Under the pieces are notes generated by a model. It had not been told where the DNA came from. It saw only the letters and a list, made by a program, of their open reading frames with translations, and did no database searches. From a phage, in sequence record PZ445446.1: a DNA stretch of 64,000 nt, one strand, 5' to 3'. Positions 863-28,060 of this stretch are shown piece after piece (the first letter of the stretch is position 1; the number at the start of each line of letters is the position of its first letter). A program made the position numbers and the translations under genes.

Positions 863-1627
863 TTGAAATTTATCTACAAAGAACACTACCACAAAGGTGT
901 TGTGTGGAGCCTATTTGACGGATCTGGTGGTGCAGTCATTGACTGGGCAAAAGCTGGATATCTGTGCCTGTGCTTTAACGCAAAAGGTGCTGACCACGGC
1001 AGTTATGCAGAGGTGATCACCGATCATCCAAATATTCACTATGTAGATTATTGGATTGATCCATGGTTCCCTCAGGAAACTTTCTGCATGTACCCAGCTC
1101 CGGACTTTGTTCTTGCATTTCCTCCGTGCACCCACTTAGCGGTGTCAGGTGCTGCACACTTTAAGAAGAAGCTGGCTAAGGACCCGTTGATCCAGATTAA
1201 TGCTGTAAAGGATGCTCGGGTTGCAGAAGAGTTGGGAGAGATTTACGATTGCCCGTGGCATGTAGAGAATCCTGTGGGTGTTATGTCCACACTGTGGCGC
1301 AAACCTGATTACCGTTTTCACCCTTCTGACTATGGCGGGTATTTACCGGAGGATGATGTAAACCCCTGGTTTCCTGAATTTATAGCTCCACGTGATGCCT
1401 ATCCAAAAATAACTTGCGGCTGGATAGGTAATGGATTTATAATCCCGGCCACAAAACCTGTCCCGCAAATAGTTGACGCGGTTAGCGGGTATTCCATGCA
1501 ACACGCCAAGCTGGGTGGAAAGAGTGCAAGAACGAAGATGATCCGAAGCCTCACACCACGTGGCTGGGCAAAAGCCGTATTCTTAGCAAACGAGCCTGTA
1601 GTAAGGAGCAGAATTAATGGGAAGTAA
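863..1627 (+). CDS. DNA (cytosine-5)-methyltransferase-like
   Basis: Motifs LFDGSGG (motif I-like), FPPCTHLAVSG (PC catalytic motif IV-like), HVENPVG (ENV motif VI-like), GNG near C-terminus; start moved to in-frame TTG 863 after terminator and GGAGA RBS (track start 833 lies inside hairpin). Confidence 0.55.
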   Translation: MKFIYKEHYHKGVVWSLFDGSGGAVIDWAKAGYLCLCFNAKGADHGSYAEVITDHPNIHYVDYWIDPWFPQETFCMYPAPDFVLAFPPCTHLAVSGAAHFKKKLAKDPLIQINAVKDARVAEELGEIYDCPWHVENPVGVMSTLWRKPDYRFHPSDYGGYLPEDDVNPWFPEFIAPRDAYPKITCGWIGNGFIIPATKPVPQIVDAVSGYSMQHAKLGGKSARTKMIRSLTPRGWAKAVFLANEPVVRSRINGK

Positions 1628-3695
1628 ATTTATGGCATCTGCATACAACCGTTTCGGTGAGCCAAACCCGAAAGCAACTAAGTATAAAAGTGGGGGAAGT
1701 GTGAAACGAGACTATCGTGATGAAAAAGAGGTTGAAACTGTAGAGACTGTTTTAGAAAATACTAAAATTGTCCCTGTTCCACAACAAAATATCGGTCTGA
1801 TGGCTGCACAATATTTTGGTGTGCGATCAGCATTGTCTCAAGAAGACGGTGTGACAGTTACTGCAACATATTTCCCATATTACGACCGCTACGGAAATCT
1901 GTCAGGTTTCAAAAAGCGTGACTGGACGATTCCTAAAGAGCAAAGGGGCCATTTCTCAGTTGTTGGCATAGTAAAGGCTAACTCTCAGATGTTTGGGCAA
2001 AAGCTGTGTGCATCTTCCAACAACCGTAAGCAAATTAACGTTTGTGAGGGGGAAGGTGATGTTATTGCAGCATGGCAGGCTGCATATCAGATACAAGTAA
2101 AAGGGATTCTCACCAACGCTAAAGCCCCGGCAAAGGTGAAGCAGTGGGCTAAAGAGGTCCAGGACGGGATCGATGCAGTTATCAACGGTGGTGATCTGGC
2201 AGGAAAACCCTGCCTACCTTTTGTTGGAATTAACTGTGGATGTGCAAACGCAGTAGATACTTTTGCAAACAATGAGAAGTTTATCCGTAGCTATGGAACA
2301 GTTGTGCTGGCAATGGATAACGATGCAGCTAACGAGGTAGAGAAGCAAAAACACGTCATTAAAGGTGTCGAGGCCACGCACAATATCGCAGCATTTTTGA
2401 TGGCTGATAACGTTTACCACGTAGAATACCCTGGTGAAGTAAACGACCCTGACGGTGTAAAAGATATCCGAGACATGCTGAAGGCTAAAAAGCTGGAAGA
2501 TATTGTCAACATGTTCCGGCATCCTGTTAAATATGTGCCTGATGCTGTGTCGGATTTAGAAGACTTCTCTATCGAGTCTTTGCGGAAAAAGACTTCCAAC
2601 GGGGTAGATATCAGCGCAGAGTTCCCAAAACTGCAAAAAATGCTAAAAGGCTTGCACAAAGGTACACTCGTAATGCTTACAGGCCCATCAGGTGGCGGTA
2701 AAACAACCGTAGCTAAAAAACTGGAACACTGTATTGCAAGATACCTAATGGACCCGACATGCCCGAAGGCTGATGACTATGAAGAGGATGATCGTCTATG
2801 TATGATCCATCTTGAGGAGGACCCAGAGGAAGCAATTAACTCCTTGTATGCAAACCAGTTAGGGTTTGATGTTAAAGAGTTTGTTGAAGATCCTAGCCAG
2901 TTTTTAACTGATCAAGAACACGCAGAGATTCATCAGTCATGGGCAAAAGCTGGAAAAATCAAAGTGTTCAAACATTTCGGGTCTATTCCGGTGGATGAGT
3001 TGATTACCAAGCTTAAGCAAATGGTTTGCCTGTACCATTGCCGTTATATTGTGCTGGATCACCTGTCCATGGTAATTTCAGGGCTTAATGTTAAGGATGA
3101 GCGAAAAGAACTGGACATGGCTATGACCCAACTGGCTGCGTTTTGTAAGCAGTTTAATGTGTTTATCTTGGTGATCGCTCACCTCAAACGTACAGAGATT
3201 GTGCCTCCTAAGGACAAGGATGGTAACCCGTTACCTTTCTGGTATCCTGTGCGAAAAGAGAATTTGCGAGGATCGGCTGGGCTTGAACAGTTGAGTTGGG
3301 TAGTTATAGGTGTCGAGGCCGAAGAAATGGTGGATCGTTCTCGTGGGCGTGTCCGTCTGGTAGGTCTTAAAAACCGTCCAGCAAAAACTTTAGGTATTGC
3401 TGACACTTTAGTTATGGACCCGCACACAGGTAAGTTCCATGATGCCAGTAACTGGTACTGGGACAAAGAAATGCAAATGTTTACAGACGGAGAAGGTGGG
3501 GAGGTTGTTTGGAGACCTCAGGCTATGTTTGAGGATCAGGAGCATGCAGTTGTAGAAACACCTATGGGCAAGGTTGTGGCTGATAAGGTTGTAACTCCTA
3601 CTGTTAAGCCTGTTGACACGCAGGAAGACCTCCAGTACGATGATCCGTCCTCTGACCATGTTCCTGGTTTTGAGGATGATGAAACACCTTTTTAA
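1617..3695 (+). CDS. T7 gp4-like primase-helicase (TOPRIM primase + DnaB-like helicase)
   Basis: TOPRIM-like EGEGD and AMDNDAANE motifs; Walker A GPSGGGKTT; AAGGAG RBS; acidic C-terminus ...DDETPF. Confidence 0.8.
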   Translation: MGSKFMASAYNRFGEPNPKATKYKSGGSVKRDYRDEKEVETVETVLENTKIVPVPQQNIGLMAAQYFGVRSALSQEDGVTVTATYFPYYDRYGNLSGFKKRDWTIPKEQRGHFSVVGIVKANSQMFGQKLCASSNNRKQINVCEGEGDVIAAWQAAYQIQVKGILTNAKAPAKVKQWAKEVQDGIDAVINGGDLAGKPCLPFVGINCGCANAVDTFANNEKFIRSYGTVVLAMDNDAANEVEKQKHVIKGVEATHNIAAFLMADNVYHVEYPGEVNDPDGVKDIRDMLKAKKLEDIVNMFRHPVKYVPDAVSDLEDFSIESLRKKTSNGVDISAEFPKLQKMLKGLHKGTLVMLTGPSGGGKTTVAKKLEHCIARYLMDPTCPKADDYEEDDRLCMIHLEEDPEEAINSLYANQLGFDVKEFVEDPSQFLTDQEHAEIHQSWAKAGKIKVFKHFGSIPVDELITKLKQMVCLYHCRYIVLDHLSMVISGLNVKDERKELDMAMTQLAAFCKQFNVFILVIAHLKRTEIVPPKDKDGNPLPFWYPVRKENLRGSAGLEQLSWVVIGVEAEEMVDRSRGRVRLVGLKNRPAKTLGIADTLVMDPHTGKFHDASNWYWDKEMQMFTDGEGGEVVWRPQAMFEDQEHAVVETPMGKVVADKVVTPTVKPVDTQEDLQYDDPSSDHVPGFEDDETPF

Positions 3696-3753: not shown

Positions 3754-6531
3754 ATGAGCATGTGGTCGTTCGATTTTGAGTCATCCGGTTTGCTGGAAGA
3801 CCCAGATCTTTATTATCACTGCGGCCTGTTTAAAGAGCTGAATAAGAACCGTTTTATGCTGTTCCTTCCTCTGAATGACCGCACACACTACTCCGAGGAG
3901 GATATAGAGAAGGCCAAGAACTTTATTCTGGCAAAGAAAACTCTTTATAAGGATTTTGAAGTTCGCATAGCAGATTTTTCGGAGTTGGAAGGTTGGCTTA
4001 CAGGAAATTCTGACTGGTCACCAACAGCTTTGAACTGCCATAACTGCTACAGTTATGACTTTATGCTGATGGAGAGATTATCCGGTATTCATTTTGATAT
4101 GTTCCGTGATCCTAAATGCATGGGGACTATCAACGACCACCAGGTTAACCTGTTTGATACGTTGGCGATGAGCAGAATCTTGTGGCCTGATCGCCCTTTA
4201 CCAAAAGGTTGTCCGGACTCTGTATTCAACCCGGTTACTAAGAAAATGCAGCCTGTTGGTCCTCACGGCCTTATGGCATGGGGCTACGCCCTTGGTAACC
4301 AGAAAGTTCAAATTGATGACTGGCGCGATCTTCCGTTGTGGAAGTATGTGGATCGTGTATTCGAGGACGTTATCATCCAGGAGCTGCTCTGGAAAGAGCT
4401 GGTAGCGGAATCAAAAGGTGTATTCTACGGCAAATCTGACATGCAGAACTTTATGTACGATCCAGCCAAAGAGAAGCCGAAAGGGTTCAAGAAAATCACC
4501 TGGAAGAACGCATTACGCCGAGGCATGCTGCAGCACTTCCTGATGGAGCTGCAGGCCCGTCAGGGTGTGTATTTCGACATAGATGGGGCTATTGCTTTAC
4601 GTGACCGTTGCGATGCGTGGATGAAAGAGATCGCTGATCGTGTTGAACCTCAACTTCCTTTAAAAGAGTTGTCAATGTCTCAGCGACCCAAGTTCCCTGA
4701 AAAGCCGTTTAACCAAGATGGGACAATCTCCAATAATGGTTGGAAATGGTTAAAAGATAAGCTTGGCTATCCTGTAGACATGAGCGCTTTAGAATTCAAA
4801 GCCCCGCCTAAGCGAGCATTTACCTCCACAGGAGATGTCAGCAAGATGGGGATAAAATGGTGCGAAGAGATGGGCTGCAAAGACCCCGACAAGATGGCTG
4901 ATTTCTTGAGAGGTTATATTAAGGGCACCTCCACACCACAACCTTTACCTAAAGAGCTGATGGATCAGGCAATAAGTGATCTGCAGCAGAAGCGAATGCC
5001 TGACTGCAAGATACCTATGAAAATCAGCAATCAGGACGACATTAAGCGATACCTGATCAGTGCTGGTTGGCTTCCGACAATGTGGAGAACTAAGGATGTA
5101 ACTAAGGACAGCAAGAAGAAAGCTCTACCTGATGCAGATGTTGATGCACGAGTATATGCATACATGGACGAGCTTTTAGAGTCAGAGTATTGTGACCTAA
5201 TTATCAACTTCTGGAACAAAACTGATGCTAAGTTTCAGACAACAGTGCACAAGTTCCGAAGCTTTCCTAACTCCGAAAGGATTAAAAAGGAAGTGTTCGG
5301 GAAAATACGCAGAAAAGCCAGGGCACTTATTACTTCTCCGCAACTGAAAGATACGTTTGGACACCTATGTCCGAATCTTGAAAAATTGAACGGAGAGATG
5401 GCTAAAGATATCGTCTTGTGGTTATCATTGCGAAACCGCAGATCGGTCCTTGATCCAATCAAGGAGGATAAGGTTGATACTGGTCTTCTTAATCACCCAC
5501 GTTTGAAGATTGACCATAAGCTTCCTGCTAAAAGCTCTGGATTAACAAACACTTCCCGACAGAAACACAGTATTTGTGCAAACATGCCTAAACCATCTCC
5601 TAAAGTGGTTATGGGTAAAGAGATGCGTAGCTTGTGGGGTGTTCCTCCTGGATATTTTGAGATCGGTATTGACGGGTCCAACTTAGAGCAGCTTATCGGG
5701 GCTTGGGGTGCCTTTGAGTTCGACAACGGCTTGTACTATGATGTTGTAAGTAACGGAGACGCACACCAAAACAATGCTGAGGCATATACAAAAGTAGCAG
5801 GCAGAGAGGTGTCTCGTAACGACGGTAAACCTATCACGTATGGGGTTATGTACGGGGCACAAAAAGATAAAGTTGCAGATATGCTGGATATCTCCCCAGA
5901 GTTGGGGCAAAGGGTGATCGATGCACTTTGGGATGCCAACCCCGGTCTTAAGGGGCGCAAAGAGGATCTGGAGAAATTCTGGGAAGCAACAGGTAAGAAG
6001 TTTATCTACTCTTTTGATGGTCATGCTATCTGGACCCGATCTAAACACTCTTTACTTAATGCATACCAACAAAATGGTGGTGCATCGCTGTGTGACTTAG
6101 TTGGGATACTCATGCACCACCAAATGGTGAAGCGTGGGTGGTACGATGAAGGTGTCCGTCGTATTATTTATTACCATGATGAGTACCAACTTCAGGTCCC
6201 TGACACACCTAAGTATAAGACTGTGTACACCTTCGACACAATTGAAGAATTGGAAGCATTTAAGGCAGAGCAGGAGGCCAAACTTCATGTGTTCGACGGT
6301 CATAAGTACAAAAAGGCACGCAAGGATGAAAACGGAAACGAAGTGGTTGACAGAGACGGAAACACGGTGTACGATCCTATCCTGAACGATGACGGAAAGC
6401 TTGAACTTATCTGGAGCCCTGTGGGTGAAATGGTGGTGCATTGCTTCTGGCAAGCTTCTAAAATGATGGGCGTTCCATTCCAGATCACAGGTGAATACTT
6501 GTGCGGTCGTAACTGGGGTGATTGTCACTAA
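3754..6531 (+). CDS. family A DNA polymerase, T7 gp5-like, with insertions
   Basis: N-terminal exo motif FDFESSG..YHCG; AWGYALG; motif B-like TYGVMYGAQ; motif C YYHDEYQ; C-terminal NWGDCH resembling T7 gp5 end; 925 aa. Confidence 0.85.
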   Translation: MSMWSFDFESSGLLEDPDLYYHCGLFKELNKNRFMLFLPLNDRTHYSEEDIEKAKNFILAKKTLYKDFEVRIADFSELEGWLTGNSDWSPTALNCHNCYSYDFMLMERLSGIHFDMFRDPKCMGTINDHQVNLFDTLAMSRILWPDRPLPKGCPDSVFNPVTKKMQPVGPHGLMAWGYALGNQKVQIDDWRDLPLWKYVDRVFEDVIIQELLWKELVAESKGVFYGKSDMQNFMYDPAKEKPKGFKKITWKNALRRGMLQHFLMELQARQGVYFDIDGAIALRDRCDAWMKEIADRVEPQLPLKELSMSQRPKFPEKPFNQDGTISNNGWKWLKDKLGYPVDMSALEFKAPPKRAFTSTGDVSKMGIKWCEEMGCKDPDKMADFLRGYIKGTSTPQPLPKELMDQAISDLQQKRMPDCKIPMKISNQDDIKRYLISAGWLPTMWRTKDVTKDSKKKALPDADVDARVYAYMDELLESEYCDLIINFWNKTDAKFQTTVHKFRSFPNSERIKKEVFGKIRRKARALITSPQLKDTFGHLCPNLEKLNGEMAKDIVLWLSLRNRRSVLDPIKEDKVDTGLLNHPRLKIDHKLPAKSSGLTNTSRQKHSICANMPKPSPKVVMGKEMRSLWGVPPGYFEIGIDGSNLEQLIGAWGAFEFDNGLYYDVVSNGDAHQNNAEAYTKVAGREVSRNDGKPITYGVMYGAQKDKVADMLDISPELGQRVIDALWDANPGLKGRKEDLEKFWEATGKKFIYSFDGHAIWTRSKHSLLNAYQQNGGASLCDLVGILMHHQMVKRGWYDEGVRRIIYYHDEYQLQVPDTPKYKTVYTFDTIEELEAFKAEQEAKLHVFDGHKYKKARKDENGNEVVDRDGNTVYDPILNDDGKLELIWSPVGEMVVHCFWQASKMMGVPFQITGEYLCGRNWGDCH

Positions 6532-9722: not shown

Positions 9723-10948
9723 TGAGCGTTATTCAACAATTTGCTAACCCGATGAATCCGCGTGAAACTGTTTTACTGGCTCACGGCATGATTAAACGTG
9801 TCAGCATCAAACCTATCAAAGGTGCTGATCCTACAACAGGTATTAAAACCACTGTGTGGCAAGGTAAGAAAATTGAGTCCAGCCACACCATCTCTTTACT
9901 GATTTCTGAACTGGATTCCTCTGATAACCTGCTTCAAGGTGGTGAAGAAGTCTGGATCAGTATGGGTGATAAACTGCTTAAACCGGGTCATCAAGACTCT
10001 GTCTCTGTTAAAATTGATGACAAGTGGGAAACCGTAACACCGGGATGGATCGTAAATATCCCTTTGAAGGCAAACGAGCATAACGGTAAGACCTATTACA
10101 AAGGCTCACTGGCTAAGATGGTCAAGCTGGGGGCAGGAGAGGCTCCAGCAGCGACTCAGCAGCAAAAACAGCAACAAGGTGCACAATCACAAGGCCAGAA
10201 GCAGAAACCTCAGCAGAATGCCAATCAGGACGTTTTACGCATCTATGGTGATGTGACTCAGATTGTTGGCAACGTGGTTACTGTTAATGACCACAAGATT
10301 GGCGAAGGTGCTATGGTTGTCACTGATGAGCAGCTTAAAGACCTGGTGGTAGGTGGTCGTGTTGCAGCCATTGTTGACAAAGACACCGGAAACATTATCA
10401 GTGGTTTCAAAGCCTATCCACCTAAGTCAGAGAACGGCACCCAAGGCTCTGGTGGCAAGCGTAAATCCTCTTACGACCCTATTGGTGTGGAGACGGGACA
10501 TAGCATCAATGCGTTGCAAATCATCCTAGATCGCGGGTTTAAGGTGGACGACCCACTAAGCGTGGCTAAAACACTGCACGTAGTCACCATTGAGCTTAAG
10601 AAAGAGTATGCTCAAGCCACCAACCGAACTGAGGATGAAGTAGGTGCCAGTGTCGGTAATGCGGTGTTGAACGCTTGTCGCCGTATTGACAAGAAAACGA
10701 AAGTTGATGATTTTGCAGCGGCAATTACTGCAGAAGCAAAAGATGTCTTGACTAATCTGGCTGAGCCGTTGTACGATTGGATCAAGAACGGTGCTGGGTC
10801 AACTGACCATCAAGAACCTCAGGCTGCCAAACAGGAAGCAGCTCCACAGCAAAATACTGTAGACGCTCCTCCTGTAAATGATGAGGAAGATGACCCGATG
10901 GATCAGAATCCAGCACAGTACGCCTTTGATGATGACATCCCATTCTAA
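9722..10948 (+). CDS. putative ssDNA-binding protein with SSB-like acidic C-terminal tip
   Basis: Q/G-rich low-complexity linker followed by C-terminal DDDIPF identical to E. coli SSB tip; position in replication module. Confidence 0.45.
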   Translation: MSVIQQFANPMNPRETVLLAHGMIKRVSIKPIKGADPTTGIKTTVWQGKKIESSHTISLLISELDSSDNLLQGGEEVWISMGDKLLKPGHQDSVSVKIDDKWETVTPGWIVNIPLKANEHNGKTYYKGSLAKMVKLGAGEAPAATQQQKQQQGAQSQGQKQKPQQNANQDVLRIYGDVTQIVGNVVTVNDHKIGEGAMVVTDEQLKDLVVGGRVAAIVDKDTGNIISGFKAYPPKSENGTQGSGGKRKSSYDPIGVETGHSINALQIILDRGFKVDDPLSVAKTLHVVTIELKKEYAQATNRTEDEVGASVGNAVLNACRRIDKKTKVDDFAAAITAEAKDVLTNLAEPLYDWIKNGAGSTDHQEPQAAKQEAAPQQNTVDAPPVNDEEDDPMDQNPAQYAFDDDIPF

Positions 10949-10963
10949 CATATAGTTAACATA

Positions 10964-10991
10964 GCCCTGCCCGAAAGGGTGGGGCATTTTT
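10964..10991 (+). terminator. intrinsic terminator (same hairpin as 818..845)
   Basis: GCCCTGCCCGAAAGGGTGGGGC then ATTTTT, directly after SSB-like gene. Confidence 0.6.
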
Positions 10992-11010
10992 GTATAAGGA
11001 GATCTGAAAA

Positions 11011-11427
11011 ATGACATTAGAAGATATCATTGTTAAGCCTGAGAACTATGACCAATACAACCTGTCAACTCAATCTGTAGACCTTGGATGCGCCACGGTC
11101 AGTGCGTGGCTGGTTAACGGAAAAGAGCTGGATAAATGCTTAGAAGCTCACATGTCTATTAACAAGTTTCTGGATGAAAATACTCACTGGCTTGAGGGTG
11201 CAGGCGTATATGCTTCATGGTTGGAGAGTATGGGATTCGACTACCAATCTGAAGAGGGGTGGTGGAGCTATTTAGCTATCTGCCCAGAGACGCTGCAATG
11301 CTTCATGAAATATTCTGAAGATTTAGAGTATCGCGCTGTGGTTGACAGTGCTATTGCCCGTTATAGCCGTAAACCTTTTTCCCACGACATTAAAACTGTG
11401 GAAGAATTTGTTGAAGTTTTCTGTTGA
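11011..11427 (+). CDS. hypothetical protein
   Basis: ORF track 138 aa; AAGGAG RBS. Confidence 0.55.
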   Translation: MTLEDIIVKPENYDQYNLSTQSVDLGCATVSAWLVNGKELDKCLEAHMSINKFLDENTHWLEGAGVYASWLESMGFDYQSEEGWWSYLAICPETLQCFMKYSEDLEYRAVVDSAIARYSRKPFSHDIKTVEEFVEVFC

Positions 11428-11789: not shown

Positions 11790-12215
11790 ATGATCTATGA
11801 AATGCCAAAACTGATTCGTGACGATGCCCAAAACGCTCACACCATTATTATGGGCAAACGCATGGATATTATTTGTCATAAAGATTTCTGGGAAGGAAGT
11901 TACTTCACAGAGTATTTTGGTAAACTGGACAATGGTCTGCTGATCCAGTTCTACACCGATGCGGAAAACAACATTCACTGGGAGTTCGAAACTGAAGATA
12001 TCCATAAACTTTTCACCTTCCTCGGTATTAAGGTTGAGGCCAAGTTTGAAGAAGGTGAGTGCGACGATTGTGGATTCTATGAGGTAACAGATTTCTACCT
12101 TCCAAGTGGTAAAAATCTCTACTACGAAAGCCACTTCGGCAACTCAAATATGCCACAGGGTTGGGATGAGTTTTTGGAAATTGCAGAAGAGGAGCTGAAA
12201 TACCGTGATTATTGA
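11790..12215 (+). CDS. hypothetical protein
   Basis: ORF track 141 aa. Confidence 0.5.
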   Translation: MIYEMPKLIRDDAQNAHTIIMGKRMDIICHKDFWEGSYFTEYFGKLDNGLLIQFYTDAENNIHWEFETEDIHKLFTFLGIKVEAKFEEGECDDCGFYEVTDFYLPSGKNLYYESHFGNSNMPQGWDEFLEIAEEELKYRDY

Positions 12216-12663
12216 TACTGTAAAGGGAGATCTAATCTCCATTTTCAAGAAAGGGTCAGGCCACATGATCCACGGTTGTAACTGCTTTCACACAATGGGT
12301 GCAGGTATAGCGAAAGATATTGCCCGTGAGTTCCCTCAAGCACTGGCAGCCGACAAAGAGACTGCTTATGGTAATCTAGACAAGCTGGGTATGTTTTCTT
12401 GTTGGGAGCATTTTGCCAAGACCAGGGTCGTATATGGAATCAACCTGTATACCCAGTTCTACCCAGGGCCCAATGCTGAATACTTCTCAATCATGAAAGG
12501 TTTTGAGCGAGTCAACGAGGTATTCAAAGGTATGTCATTGCCGTTCTACATTCCTAAAATCGGATGCGGTATTGGAGGTCTAAAGTGGGAACATGTAGAA
12601 GATGTAATTAATCTTGCAACCACAGATATTGATGTGGTTGTAGTAGAGTACAAAAAGTGTTGA
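12205..12663 (+). CDS. macro domain protein (ADP-ribose binding/processing)
   Basis: HGCNCFHTMGAGIAK signature typical of macro domains; 152 aa. Confidence 0.7.
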   Translation: MIIDTVKGDLISIFKKGSGHMIHGCNCFHTMGAGIAKDIAREFPQALAADKETAYGNLDKLGMFSCWEHFAKTRVVYGINLYTQFYPGPNAEYFSIMKGFERVNEVFKGMSLPFYIPKIGCGIGGLKWEHVEDVINLATTDIDVVVVEYKKC

Positions 12664-14160: not shown

Positions 14161-14489
14161 CAGAGATCATCGTTTCAACTGCAGGGTATGTATTCCTGAC
14201 AATCATTGCGTTGGCTATTCTGGTGGCGGTGTATGGATTTGTTATCCTGCCTATTCTTGAGACATTTAGCTTGTGTCGGTGTTGGAGAAAAGCTTACGGA
14301 CCACAACCGTGGAAAGACTGGTTTCATTTGGTGCGTATAGCGTTCTCTTATGCCTATGATCACTCCAGCAGTGCATGCGTAACCGGGTACCATGCCTACA
14401 ACTGGAACTGGGAAGGGCTTGGGAGATGGACTGTTACAAAAACTATACCCTTACGGTTGTATAAAGGAAAGAACACACTGGGAGCCTGA
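14157..14489 (+). CDS. hypothetical membrane protein
   Basis: ORF track 110 aa; hydrophobic N-terminal segment IIALAILVAVYGFVILPIL. Confidence 0.5.
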   Translation: MTEIIVSTAGYVFLTIIALAILVAVYGFVILPILETFSLCRCWRKAYGPQPWKDWFHLVRIAFSYAYDHSSSACVTGYHAYNWNWEGLGRWTVTKTIPLRLYKGKNTLGA

Positions 14490-14797
14490 TATTTTAAGTT
14501 ATCAGATTGCCAGAGATCAGGAGGATTTCTAAAATGGATTTCCTCCTTTTGATATTTTACCTACCAGGATATTTTAAAATCCTTAGAAAATCAGAAAATG
14601 GATCGAAAACTAAAATGGATTTTTCAGAGCAGGCACGACGAGATGAACCACTCATCCTATCGTCTGCACCATATTCCAGACCACCATTACAGATTTCCCG
14701 CACATGCTCACACCCTTCTACTAGAACTTCCCCCACTTACCCTTGACCTTTTATAGTAATAATCCAACCACTACCTTGAAGTTGTGGCGCAGCTTTC

Positions 14798-14990
14798 CAA
14801 GTACTCGATCTGTTTTTCGTTTCAAAGATTGAATTTTCTGAAAATTTTTCTCGATAAATTTCTCAGTACTCGATCTGTTTTTCGTTTTCTGAATCGGATT
14901 TTCTGGAAATCGTTCCGGCTCTCGACCTGAAATTTTTGGGGACGAAATCGATTTTTCGTTTTCAGAAATGGATTTTTAAAATTTCTATAT
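14798..14990. repeat. about three imperfect tandem copies of a ~66-bp unit (iteron-like)
   Basis: AGTACTCGATCTGTTTTTCGTTT perfect at 14800-14823 and 14865-14888; degenerate third copy; AAAATGGATTT recurs nearby. Confidence 0.6.
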
Positions 14991-15117
14991 GGGAATATTT
15001 TAGTGGATACTATTTTATAGGAAATTGTTACGGAGGATAATTAGCGTGCTAATTAAATTTATTAAATGCGAGGAGTTCTCATTTAGAATTTTGAATGATA
15101 ATCATTCTCGTTTGCAG

Positions 15118-15165
15118 AATAACGGGCAGGCCCGGTGATTGTCTCCCGGCCCCTACTGCCCCGGC
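15118..15165 (+). repeat. GC-rich structured element copy A
   Basis: GGGCAGGCCCGGTGATTGTCTCCCGG...; homologous to 15255 and inverted copy at 24225. Confidence 0.5.
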
Positions 15166-15254
15166 TTGTTATTATAGTAACACACAGGACAAAGAAAGCA
15201 AGAAGTTTTTGCATAAATTTTTAGACGATAATGATAATCGTTCTCATTTCATGC

Positions 15255-15300
15255 AGCGCCCATCCCCGGTGGTTGTCTCCCCCGTCACCGGTGCCTGCCG
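15255..15300 (+). repeat. GC-rich structured element copy B
   Basis: CCCCGGTGGTTGTCTCCCCCGTCACCGGTGCCTGCCG; internal CCGGTG/CACCGG stem. Confidence 0.5.
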
Positions 15301-15353
15301 TCCTTTCGATAGGTATATTTTGCCACCTGGCGGGGCCGCTGTCAACACTTTTC

Positions 15354-15367
15354 AAAAAAAAAAAAAA
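15354..15367 (+). repeat. A14 homopolymer tract
   Basis: 14 consecutive A in non-coding region. Confidence 0.7.
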
Positions 15368-15509
15368 TTCTAACCTGATGCGCTGACCGCTGCAACCTGG
15401 CGGGGCCAGCCTGGCAGGGCCTAACTGACCAGGTAGGAGAGAATGAAGGCTTGCAAACCTGGTGGGCCTATGCTATAGGATAGGTAACAATTGAAGAGGA
15501 GGTACAAAA

Positions 15510-15646
15510 ATGGAAGGTAATATGATCCCCCTGGTTGAAAAGGCTATGGCGGGAGCGTTGGAACATAAAGAAGAGTACGAAAAAATGATGGTTAACCTGG
15601 CAGGGGCGGCGGCTGGAGAATTCTACCCAAAAAATAATTTTAACTA
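15510..15646 (+). CDS. small hypothetical protein (45 aa)
   Basis: GAGGAGG RBS 6 nt before ATG; below track cutoff; read by eye. Confidence 0.35.
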
Positions 15647-15650
15647 ATGG

Positions 15651-24167: not shown

Positions 24168-24185
24168 TCCTTATAAACTACAAAA

Positions 24186-24212
24186 CAGGGCTTGCAATGG
24201 TCCTGTTTTTTG
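24186..24212 (+). terminator. intrinsic terminator candidate
   Basis: ACAGG..CCTGT stem followed by TTTTTTG. Confidence 0.4.
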
Positions 24213-24224
24213 TTATACTTGTTT

Positions 24225-24273
24225 CACGGCAGGCACCTGGCGACGGGGGGAGACAATCACCGGGTGTGCCTGC
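24225..24273 (-). repeat. GC-rich structured element copy C (inverted relative to A/B)
   Basis: Reverse complement closely matches 15262..15300; contains GCAGGCAC/GTGCCTGC stem. Confidence 0.5.
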
Positions 24274-24295
24274 TATATAAAAATTATAAAAACCG

Positions 24296-24324
24296 TTGAC
24301 ATCTGCCAGGTGGTGGGGTAGCAT
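24296..24324 (+). promoter_or_regulatory. sigma70-like promoter candidate
   Basis: TTGACA 24296-24301, 17-bp spacer, TAGCAT. Confidence 0.4.
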
Positions 24325-25540: not shown

Positions 25541-25560
25541 TTTTTTAACTGAATTATCAA

Positions 25561-25584
25561 GGGGCTTAGGCCCCTTTCTTTTTG
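25561..25584 (+). terminator. intrinsic terminator
   Basis: GGGGCTTAGGCCCC hairpin followed by TTTCTTTTTG. Confidence 0.6.
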
Positions 25585-26189
25585 TCTGCTCTTCTCCTAC
25601 CATAAACGGCCCTACCTGGCAAGTGGAATAATTGACTAGCCATCAATCCCACATACTGTACAAATATACATGGAAAATAACTATTGCATAATTTTTCATT
25701 GTGTGGTAGCAAGTCCATTTTTACCCGTTTTCTCTCCCAAAAGTGCACGTAATGCCGCTATTGCACAAATTTTAACCTGATGCACATCTCCAATATCTTG
25801 TCAACAACTAAAAATCTTTATAAGTCATACACTTACACAGCATCGAAAGCGTGTTCTACGCGAAAAATCGAGTATAACTATAGCCGCCAGATCTCAGAAT
25901 TCACGTACGCACGCCATTCTATAGCCTGCAAAGTATTTATTCCAACCACAGAATAACGGAATAGTCAATACCTGCATAAAATAATTATTCGTGTAAACTG
26001 CATAACATAAATCAGCTCAGGTGTCAACATTTTTCGTAAACAGTCCGAAATTATCACGATGAGCTATCATAAACAGAGAAATATTTAGTCGTCTAATGTT
26101 TACTGTACATTACTATACTGACTGGAATCATTAGATGACTAAGAGAAAGATAAGAAATAATTAATAATGTAATTATTTTACCTGTAACA

Positions 26190-26500
26190 ATAAGGCAACT
26201 ATGCAAACGAATGGCATGGCGCGACGGAGTCGCGACATAATATAAAAGCAGTAACCATCACCCCCGTGATAGTTTGTCTGCAAACTATTAATCAGATCAT
26301 AGTTGCCTTGTATTTAGTTAATCATGACATAACAAGCAAGGCAACTATAGATCTTCTAATAGTTGCCCTGCTTTTATATTATGTCATAGGAACGCCCGAA
26401 GGGGTGACCTAGTCACCTGGTATAGCCAGCGAAAGATTATTAACTTGTCGATTGTTATCTTGTTAATTGTTTTCATGCAAACGAATGGCATGGCTTATCA
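26190..26500. repeat. cluster of inverted and direct repeats in non-coding DNA
   Basis: AAGGCAACTAT at 26192 and 26338 with inverted ATAGTTGCC(T/C)T at 26299 and 26359; 20-bp direct repeat ATGCAAACGAATGGCATGGC at 26201 and 26475. Confidence 0.6.
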
Positions 26501-28060
26501 TCTATGCGTGAACAGTGAGGCATGCAATAGTAACAATTGTTATTGTATCCAGTGTGTTGAGTATGCCCAGTGTGTCACTATTATGTCATATTATGTCACA
26601 GTATGTCAGACAAGTTTTCCTCCTCTTTGTCAAGTGCTGCATGAAAAATTTACAAGCTTGTATGGTAGCATTTTTGCGGCCCTGTTTACATTCAGTGTTG
26701 TATGTATAATCCTTGTTGTGTGGGCGTTTAGACGTCTGGACGGTCAGAAGTTTGCAGGTCAATATCTAATCTATTGGCTGCTAACTATATCCCCCACAAA
26801 TAATAAGAAATATAATTGTTATGTGCGTAAACAGTAACCCATGTTATCAATCCCTGTATGTATCGCCAGTGGTGCGCATAATGGGTATTATGTTAAATTG
26901 CCCGTAATGATAACAGTTCTCACAATGATAGGTATTCTCATTCATCCACACAAAATAGGTTGCAAATGTTGTGCCACTGTGTGAACGGCCTGGCCTATTA
27001 ATTTCTCTCACTGCCTCGATATTTGAGAATTGTTATAAGAATGAGAAGTATTCCCATTCCGTCCGCCTGGCAGCACTCCAGTAGCTACCGGCTCCTGACA
27101 GGGCAGCACTCCTGTAGGTCAGGTCAAAATCGTGGTAGAATTGGGCCTGTTCAGATATTTCTGACTGACTCTTCAGATCTGTGTGGGAAAAGCCAACCTC
27201 TCCGGAGGGGCAGGGGAGGTCAATTAAAAAATTTACGTGGTGTATGAAGCGCTCTTCAGGTAAGGCATGTATTATGGGATGAAACCCTCTTCAGGCAATG
27301 ATATTTGTGGGTGTGATATTTGCTGGAAAGCCAGATATGACGGGACTCCCGGCGGGGATGGGGTAGTACAGACAGGGAAAATATGGGGATGTAGTTGGGT
27401 AAATTGATCAGACAGGTAGAGTATGGAATATGTTACAAGTATGTTAAATAGGGAGGATGAATATCTGCAGGATTTGTGTGTAAAATCAAAGACTTAAGTG
27501 GTGTTGTGGTATTTTCTATAAATAATTCAAGTTTAATAGGTAATATTTGTCTCTATCCACTTTGTGTGGTAAACAGATTCAGATGAAATTGGTTTACAAG
27601 TGTATACATAATATACAAATTAAAGATACAAGAAACCCCCCTCCCCCTTCGGCTACCATTCACCTTTTCCTCTGACTGGTACTTAAACACTTATTCAGAC
27701 TCTTCAGGTTATCACCCATATATCATATGGCAGTGACTGGTGTCCTCCGGCCCCTCTTTCGTCACCCGTCCGCTTCGCCATGCTAATGCCATAGCCAATG
27801 GTTCGGTTGTTCACTCTGTTCACTCAGGTGTATCTCCATACCCCTTCAAACCGAAGAGAACAGAAAACCCGAATTACTCGGTAAAAGAAAAGAGAAGAAC
27901 TTAATTTTATCAGGATAGGCAAGAATGTCAAGGCATGACTGCTCACTAAACAAGCAAACAGTCATGTGTGGAAGGTAAGTGATTGTGGTGGTGGGAAATT
28001 TAGTTGAAAGATGTGTTATAGGTGCGCTTCCAGCACTTTGGCCGGGCAGCTAATTGTGTG

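Follow-up and report, generated by a model that had tools for sequence, protein, structure and literature searches.

The 64-kb window analysed here (the whole stretch of 64,000 nt from sequence record PZ445446.1) stems from an rV5-like Vequintavirus, and its positions 14533-15509 form a cis-acting non-coding control locus common to rV5-like phages (Vequintavirinae, Stephanstirmvirinae). The 1.2 kb around the repeats of this locus share 96% identity with Escherichia phage MaxBurger and match 248 phage records, mostly Vequintavirus (rV5-like). The anatomy and conservation of the locus, its promoter and Fur-box matches and its non-coding status were established in silico. Judged from sequence, it probably serves as an origin of replication or as a regulatory hub, and the reading that we tentatively prefer is a Fur-gated replication origin that leftward transcription by the host would activate. 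Phages of the rV5 type are common coliphages with relatives infecting Salmonella, Klebsiella and Cronobacter, and they are used in therapy and biocontrol; to our knowledge, neither their origin nor their early regulation nor their non-coding DNA has been characterised. In the literature searched, the locus, its GC-rich element and its Fur-like boxes are not described, and the rV5 genome paper labels a stretch of its map as “non-coding” (PMC3606486).

Architecture and conservation of the locus

The nearest credible genes end at 14489 (upstream) and begin at 15510 (downstream), and no credible gene lies in 14533-15509. An initial annotation had described iteron-like repeats with a perfect core, AAAATGGATTT-like motifs and an A14 tract in this stretch, all of which were recovered. 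On the left, three GATATTTT direct repeats on the plus strand (14487-14577; at 14488, 14551 and 14568) are interleaved with phased plus-strand AAAATGGATTT motifs (14526-14625; exact at 14531 and 14612, degenerate at 14595). Four AAAATGGATTT-like motifs had been claimed before; besides these two exact copies, there is a copy with one mismatch at 14965, and looser ones lie at 14595 and 14891. With at most one mismatch, AAAATGGATTT occurs 7 times in the whole window against 3.5 expected, which is not significant, and the exact 10-mer AAATGGATTT has three copies in 64 kb, every one of them within the locus and on the plus strand. A variable spacer (14626-14795), the least conserved part of the locus, leads to three tandem repeats with a period of 65-74 bp (14791-14976, plus strand), as the estimate of about three units had suggested. 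Their units of 47-57 nt (14791-14837, 14856-14902 and 14930-14976) are spaced by 65 and 74 bp, and the outer copies are 77% and 74% identical to the middle one. Each has a conserved head of 10-12 bp (GTACTCGATCTG, in the third copy CTCTCGACCTG) and a body rich in TTTTCGTTT and A/T tracts; the 23-bp perfect core AGTACTCGATCTGTTTTTCGTTT lies at 14800-14822 and 14865-14887, with 0 matches in shuffled sequence, and the third repeat contains an inverted repeat (14932-14969).

The repeats run into an AT-rich stretch (14921-15064, 25-29% GC) with a palindrome, AATTAGCGTGCTAATT, at 15039-15054; it is one of the four lowest-GC places in the window and a candidate unwinding region. The entire non-coding stretch had been called AT-rich, which holds for 14500-14575 and 14750-15060 (25-35% GC), i.e. 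for the left two-thirds of the locus, but not for 15100-15420 (47-63% GC). That right part carries palindromes, a GC-rich element and minus-strand promoters, the most conserved parts of the locus, which the initial annotation overlooked. Directly upstream of the -35 hexamer of the promoter P2, in the position of an UP element, lies the A14 tract (15354-15367, plus strand; T14 on the minus strand). Its length is variable, and it is not conserved as such, relatives having A7 to A13 or A5T6. Plus-strand CCTGGYGGGGCC repeats at 15326, 15396, 15410 and 15458 (zone 15326-15479) are promoter-spacer sequences, and a rightward promoter for the downstream genes, TTGCAA-N17-TATAGG, is located at 15451-15479 (plus strand). 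Four relatives have lost 48-62 bp between repeats of the CCTGGCGGGGCC zone (window 15405-15470), and each of these deletions recreates TTGCAA-N16-TATAGG; the CCTGGCGGGGCC repeats can therefore be regarded as duplicated promoter spacers.

Among the aligned genomes, the locus is conserved better than the neighbouring genes of rV5-like phages. Mean pairwise identity, determined by segment in an alignment of eight Vequintavirus genomes, was 94-98% in the non-coding core (14796-15345) and 78% at the end of the upstream gene. The GATATTTT/AAAATGGATTT block (14520-14625) reached 92%, the spacer (14626-14795) 74% with indels of 1-2 nt, the three tandem repeats 94.5%, the first palindrome cluster 97.7%, the first GC-rich element 96.9%, and the second element with its promoter 98.3%, while the A tract (79%) and the CCTGGCGGGGCC repeat zone (65%) were more variable. 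Since this is the best-conserved DNA in its neighbourhood, the locus must do something essential in cis or via RNA.

The suspicion that the small open reading frames (ORFs) of this stretch are non-coding was borne out by indels, loss of frame, codon-position invariance, a missing ribosome-binding site and discordant annotation. Relatives carry indels of 1 and 2 nt within ORF 14507-14746, ORF 15095-15373 has its ATG within a palindrome and lacks a ribosome-binding site, and annotators of related records call none to four ORFs in the locus. Its DNA is near-invariant at all codon positions in the eight Vequintavirus genomes, and this constraint at every position, would-be third codon positions included, indicates functional non-coding DNA. 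In other genera, the distance from the start of the GC-rich element to AGACAA differs by 1, 2 or 5 nt and the AUG is often AUA, so that the element is not coding either.

Across genera, blastn matches to distant relatives (phAPEC8, phiTE, CR3, PVP-SE1-like phages, Mydovirus, 4MG and others) are confined to about 15050-15200 of the window. When loci were read individually, the whole architecture was found in the same order in at least 12 genomes of at least 6 genera, i.e. 3-5 GATATTT repeats, phased AAAATGG(A/T)TTT motifs, a variable spacer, three ~70-bp tandem repeats with A/T-tract tails (GAAAAAATTTTT), 1-4 palindromes of the type AATGAGAATCATTCTCATT, a GC-rich element with the invariant GGTGWTTGTCTC (motif AGACAAWCACC) and a promoter on the opposite strand. 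AT-rich DNA sits between the ~70-bp repeats and the Fur-box-like palindromes in this shared order. Clusters of 3-5 GATATTT(T/G) repeats occupy the matching place in phiTE, CR3, 4MG, Mydo, PVP-SE1 and others. The repeat heads differ by lineage, with GTACTCGATCTG (..CTCGATC..) in the window and GGTWCTCGATCG, GGGTCTCGATC and GGACTTGAGRGG elsewhere, and the ~70-bp repeats of phAPEC8 and anhysbys are far more diverged than those of the other genera examined. In translated searches, the ORFs flanking the loci of other genera had no detectable similarity to those of the window. The initial annotation had proposed to look for relatives that lack the repeats and keep the flanking genes; the reverse was found, and this speaks in favour of an origin because relatives keep the repeats while their flanking genes have diverged beyond detection.

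Leftward promoters, GC-rich elements and Fur-like boxes

The right part of the locus consists of a unit of promoter, GC-rich element and Fur-like box that is duplicated in the window (15094-15201 and 15224-15345). In the first copy, the leftward promoter P1 (15171-15201, minus strand) has the -10 hexamer TATAAT (15171-15176) and a weak -35, either TTGCTT (15196-15201, N19) or CTTTCT (N16). It is followed by GC-rich element copy 1 with the invariant AGACAATCACC (15115-15162, minus strand; nhmmer E=6e-12) and by palindrome cluster 1 (15065-15112), made up of the Fur-box-like AATGATAATCATTCTCGTT at 15094-15112 and a weak copy at 15065-15083. The second copy has the leftward promoter P2 (15317-15345, minus strand; TTGACA, a TG-extended N17 spacer and CAAAAT, 10/12 matches), GC-rich element copy 2 (AGACAACCACC; 15254-15301, minus strand; nhmmer E=1.2e-5) and palindrome cluster 2 (15224-15248), in which two overlapping Fur-box-like sites start 6 bp apart at 15224 and 15230. 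A third promoter (24192-24219, plus strand; TTGCAA at 24192-24197, N16, TATACT at 24214-24219) and a third GC-rich element (24225-24278, plus strand; nhmmer E=1e-10) lie between two genes, without a Fur-like box and without repeats. A terminator-like hairpin (24184-24208) overlaps the -35 of this promoter, and the third element is followed by a promoter named P168 in the rV5 paper (TTGACA at 24296-24301, TAGCAT at 24319-24324).

Fur-like sites were scored against a 9-1-9 model (AATGATAATNATTATCATT, matches counted out of 18) and the classical 19-bp Fur consensus, GATAATGATAATCATTATC. The site at 15094 matches the model in 16/18 positions and the classical box in 15/19 (at 15091), while the sites of cluster 2 reach 14/18 (15224) and 16/18 (15230), and 17/19 against the classical box (15227-15245). 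Matches of at least 16/18 occur twice in the window against 0.013 expected, both inside the locus, and the next-best ones (26924 and 27040) are located in the other large non-coding region. Real Fur clusters are reported to comprise overlapping sites 6 bp apart, a pattern that the 15224/15230 pair fits, and strong Fur sites are reported to precede nohA, with binding seen in gel shifts, and, as a prediction, nohB (PMC2189734). The genes nohA and nohB, which we take to be terminase small-subunit homologs of cryptic prophages of Escherichia coli, offer a precedent for Fur sites in phage-derived DNA near packaging genes.

A minus-strand sigma-70-like promoter is present in each genome, with -35 hexamers TTGCAA, TTGATC, TTGACC or TTGACA and -10 hexamers TATATT, TATTAT, GATAAT or TATAAT; the hexamers are conserved, while the spacer of 16-17 nt between them is free to vary in sequence. 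The distance from the leftward promoter to AGACAAWCACC is 26-38 nt. A further 32-36 nt past this motif, nearly all genomes tabulated have a 9-1-9 Fur match of 16-18/18 (18/18 in 4MG), and a homologue of the Fur-like box at 15094-15112 was found in every genus examined. Conserved leftward sigma-70 promoters and near-consensus Fur boxes are predicted components of the locus, and they support in silico the regulatory hub that had been proposed for it. In 14 genomes outside Vequintavirus, a direct repeat GTAAA-N5-GTAAA lies 3-14 nt (mostly 5-6 nt) upstream of the leftward -35 (loci L003, L007, L013, L015-L017 and L026-L031); it is absent from the window, and elsewhere in the 139 kb scanned it occurs only beside a similar promoter in the terminal-repeat region of phage KPP-1. 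This repeat agrees with what we take to be the consensus of the CpxR box.

Three further candidates were rejected. A plus-strand promoter overlapped by Fur-like sites (TTGCAT-N18-GATAAT, 15209-15238) has lost its -10 in most Vequintavirus genomes, and another one on the plus strand (TTGAAT-N18-CAGAAT) fails in phiTE, Mydo and one uncultivated virus genome (UViG). A nut- or put-like antitermination leader would suit the copy at 24.2 kb, but copies 1 and 2 lack a downstream gene on their strand. Other genera (L002-L007, L012-L017) possess a second highly conserved leftward unit at about +100 to +260 from the main palindrome, with a promoter such as TTGACG-N17-CATAAT followed by ..CGCCACCCCACGGCGAAAAGGCGGGGCTAAC..GGAAGGTGGATCGCCGGTAG; it is absent from the window, and in rV5-like phages the second copy of the AGACAA element occupies its place. 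In phiTE and anhysbys, the locus is followed by a small minus-strand gene with the motif LGWQGGTVHQVA (L003:2776-3207 and L002:2814-3080), which had no Pfam match and, in a translated search, no homolog in the window.

Origin, regulatory RNA or entry signal

We infer that a transcription-activated origin would work as follows. Host RNA polymerase would initiate at the tandem leftward sigma-70 promoters P2 (15345-15317) and P1 (about 15201-15171), and each transcript would open with the conserved GC-rich leader of ~50 nt bearing AGACAAWCACC and reach a near-consensus Fur box 55-80 nt further on. Transcription past the box would run into the AT-rich 14921-15064 and on through the ~70-bp repeats, phased A-tracts and GATATTT motifs, where the DNA might be opened or primed for a T7-like replisome consisting of a gp4-type helicase-primase and PolA. 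Iron-loaded Fur at the boxes would serve as a gate or an architectural factor, and a presumed phage protein may bind the lineage-specific repeat heads. Variation of these heads by lineage is what would be expected for sites of a phage protein, whereas the sequences that host proteins would contact, i.e. promoter hexamers and Fur-like boxes, are constant.

We rank this origin first because it is the only reading that uses all parts of the locus, i.e. repeats, bent and AT-rich DNA, promoters and the T7-like replisome. The window encodes a DnaB-type helicase (1617-3695, plus strand; Pfam DnaB_C, gp4-like helicase-primase) and a family A polymerase, PolA (3754-6531, plus strand; Pfam DNA_pol_A). 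As in T7-type origins, a gp4-like helicase-primase and a family A polymerase thus coincide with promoters aimed at AT-rich DNA, the predicted P1 and P2 both pointing leftward into the AT-rich and repeat region, and as in iteron origins an AT-rich candidate unwinding region (14921-15064) adjoins the repeats. The non-coding stretch had been placed just after the replisome genes. It does follow them, but the wording is loose because helicase and PolA end 8 kb upstream, with ~20 small ORFs of PHROG families of unknown function in between.

Several observations weigh against an origin. The repeat period of 65-74 bp is far from the 17-22 bp of classical iterons, and 14400-15600 contains no exact DnaA box or IHF consensus and no GATC enrichment. 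The ORFs flanking the locus are without Pfam match and belong to PHROG families of unknown function, and none of them was recognisable as an initiator gene. The GC-skew inflection suggested as a check was not found, as the skew keeps its sign at the locus, with a step from about +0.13 to +0.075, a rise in AT skew and unchanged gene orientation; this step is opposite to expectation, since the plus-strand skew should rise rightward of an origin. In rV5, skew changes only at strand switches (PMC3606486). Moreover, the Fur box lies 55-80 nt downstream of the predicted start, a non-classical position for an operator, and the third copy at 24192-24278 lacks repeats, from which it follows that promoter and element have a role independent of an origin.

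Because promoter and element are the most conserved part and also occur away from the repeats, a regulatory RNA or early-control hub without origin function is nearly as likely, and equally tentative. P1, P2 and the copy at 24192 would then make leftward RNAs of ~55 nt, or promoter-proximal leaders, that carry AGACAAWCACC; their target, reached in trans or in cis, would be RNA polymerase or another RNA. How long or how abundant they are would be determined by Fur and, in other genera, likewise by the CpxR-like box, and the repeats would function as operators, as architectural sites or as the 3' untranslated region of the upstream operon. This agrees with promoter and element being the sole part that blastn detects across genera, with their presence three times in the window, once without repeats, with conserved promoter hexamers around varying spacers, with the fixed distance of the Fur-like box and with GTAAA-N5-GTAAA upstream of the -35 in the 14 genomes outside Vequintavirus. 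An RNA would, however, leave the conserved architecture of repeats, A-tracts and GATATTT motifs unexplained. No canonical terminator was called after the element, which has only a UAUUCU tail. RNAalifold gave no consensus fold on either strand, although every sequence can be drawn as a long irregular hairpin; minimum free energy (MFE) z-scores lay close to 0 in most cases and between -2 and -3 in a few, on both strands; and the element showed no significant RNA covariation. Its putative closing stem takes all four A/G x U/C combinations (A-U, G-C, G.U and the A.C mismatch). Scanned against Rfam, the window region and three homologous loci returned sub-threshold chance matches or none, and no Rfam family was assigned. 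Conservation thus acts on primary sequence, as DNA or as loosely structured RNA.

Searches beyond phages were likewise negative, with no match to 15040-15380 in complete E. coli genomes and three matches to AGACAAWCACC..TGCCYGYYATTC in 185,579 species genomes, all of them chance matches that read as in-frame coding sequence. Judging from sequence, we presume that two of these three lie in a sensor kinase and an integrase. The pseudo-ToxI RNA of phiTE was rejected as a counterpart, being a separate locus at 106.7 kb.

A DNA-entry signal or another structural cis signal, comparable to the injection stop signal (iss) of T5, is improbable, and its appeal comes from the position of the locus relative to the presumed genome end and its likeness to the description of T5 iss. 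In KPP-1 (Mydovirus), a terminal repeat of 514 bp stands out by doubled coverage at 116316-116829 (PMC9862379). The KPP-1 copy of the locus (124700-125807, other strand) lies ~8 kb from this repeat; the genes separating the two are co-oriented, and those beyond are convergent. The window is arranged in the same way, in that the locus is followed by 10 kb of small plus-strand genes, a 2.5-kb non-coding region (25541-28060) and minus-strand genes. This second non-coding region is larger, sits at the convergent junction, has very low GC and possesses repeats of its own (e.g. 26435-26471 and 26573-26608) and weaker palindrome copies (26906, 26924 and 27040). By KPP-1 synteny, the physical genome ends probably lie within 25541-28060, 10-12 kb from the locus. 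Small genes fill the interval between, preceded by strong sigma-70 promoters that point to the presumed end, and the rV5 paper predicted many sigma-70 promoters among the small genes right of the locus and no promoter or terminator inside it (PMC3606486). The T5 iss region is likewise non-coding, with 66-bp direct repeats and host-factor boxes (bioRxiv 10.1101/866236). On the other hand, two-step DNA transfer was never reported for rV5-like phages, no paired DnaA boxes were found at the locus, and the terminal repeat is ~0.5 kb rather than ~10 kb long.

Two readings can be set aside as very improbable. A genome terminus or packaging site (terminal repeat, pac or cos) would agree with a long non-coding region with repeats and with database records that begin near the element, but record starts are inconsistent and the locus is not the terminus because KPP-1 synteny puts the terminal repeat elsewhere, ~8 kb from the KPP-1 copy. 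That the ORFs 14507-14746, 14784-14930 and 15095-15373 encode proteins, as annotated in some records (e.g. MaxBurger and Mangalyan), is contradicted by records that annotate none, by frameshifting indels, by loss of frame across genera, by nucleotides invariant at all codon positions and by the lack of a ribosome-binding site before 15095.

Surroundings of the locus and known systems

Elsewhere in the 64-kb window, no tRNA or tmRNA genes were found. A 152-amino-acid protein (12205-12663) has a weak Macro-domain match and matches a PHROG “phosphatase” family. MaxBurger carries a putative homing endonuclease gene inserted after a 408-amino-acid ORF (L001:3924-4547), and there is none in the window (10948-11011). 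At 15529, shortly after the small downstream ORF 15510-15647 begins, the window has 39 nt (13 codons, in frame) fewer than other Vequintavirus genomes, among which the corresponding stretch varies by 1-3 nt in length. Furthermore, this E. coli phage locus is matched by 17 records titled “Campylobacter phage”, of which the five listed reach 90-95% identity across the whole query; the records probably represent rV5-like phages that were mislabelled or are contaminants.

It seems rather unlikely, and would nonetheless be of consequence, that lytic rV5-like phages couple an early step, i.e. origin firing or a small leftward RNA, to iron via Fur, with the CpxR-like box adding envelope stress outside Vequintavirus. 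If so, host signals would gate the replication or early programme of lytic phages through a locus conserved across two subfamilies, and Fur binding would provide a rare example of a virulent phage reading the host regulator of metal status. The locus also gives a defined fragment for origin assays, landmarks for engineering and reporter constructs.

T5 iss (Repeat Region 3) is an untranslated region of at least 1 kb with ordered direct repeats and palindromes that is better conserved than neighbouring ORFs; it is situated ~8% of the genome length away from the end, where the first-expressed genes have their inner border (bioRxiv 10.1101/866236). The locus resembles it as a conserved untranslated region with ordered repeats, palindromes and host-factor boxes that is better conserved than its flanking ORFs; however, the T5 boxes are those of DnaA and the ones here are Fur-like, and T5 has 10-kb terminal repeats and a proven two-step transfer. 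With the Fur-controlled RNAs RyhB and PrrF, the locus shares a tight unit of sigma-70 promoter, short non-coding transcript (predicted) and near-consensus Fur box, which is duplicated in tandem as in PrrF1/2. Unlike in these systems, the Fur box is found at about +55 to +80 and not over the promoter, a Rho-independent terminator, sequence similarity and an Rfam match are lacking, and the bearer is a strictly lytic phage.

Two phage origins can be compared with the transcription-activated origin that we favour. Lambda ori, with its activation by pR and its oop RNA, likewise combines direct repeats, adjoining AT-rich DNA and, beside the repeats, a short leftward transcript of sigma-70 type (predicted here), and in both cases initiation would depend on nearby transcription tuned by host regulators. 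The lambda iterons, in contrast, are 19-bp binding sites of the O protein within the O gene itself, while the repeats here span 65-74 bp in non-coding DNA; Pfam and PHROG searches of the window and the flanking ORFs found no O-like gene. In T7, the primary origin is made up of the tandem promoters 1.1A and 1.1B with AT-rich DNA downstream of them, and it does without an initiator protein. The promoters here are of the host sigma-70 and not of the phage-polymerase type, and the long repeats and Fur-like boxes are without T7 counterpart, but the window encodes a T7-like replisome, two tandem promoters are predicted to fire into an AT-rich stretch, and again no initiator would be needed. Repeat-bearing origins and Fur-controlled RNAs are thus already known, and what is new is their combination in strictly lytic phages of two subfamilies.

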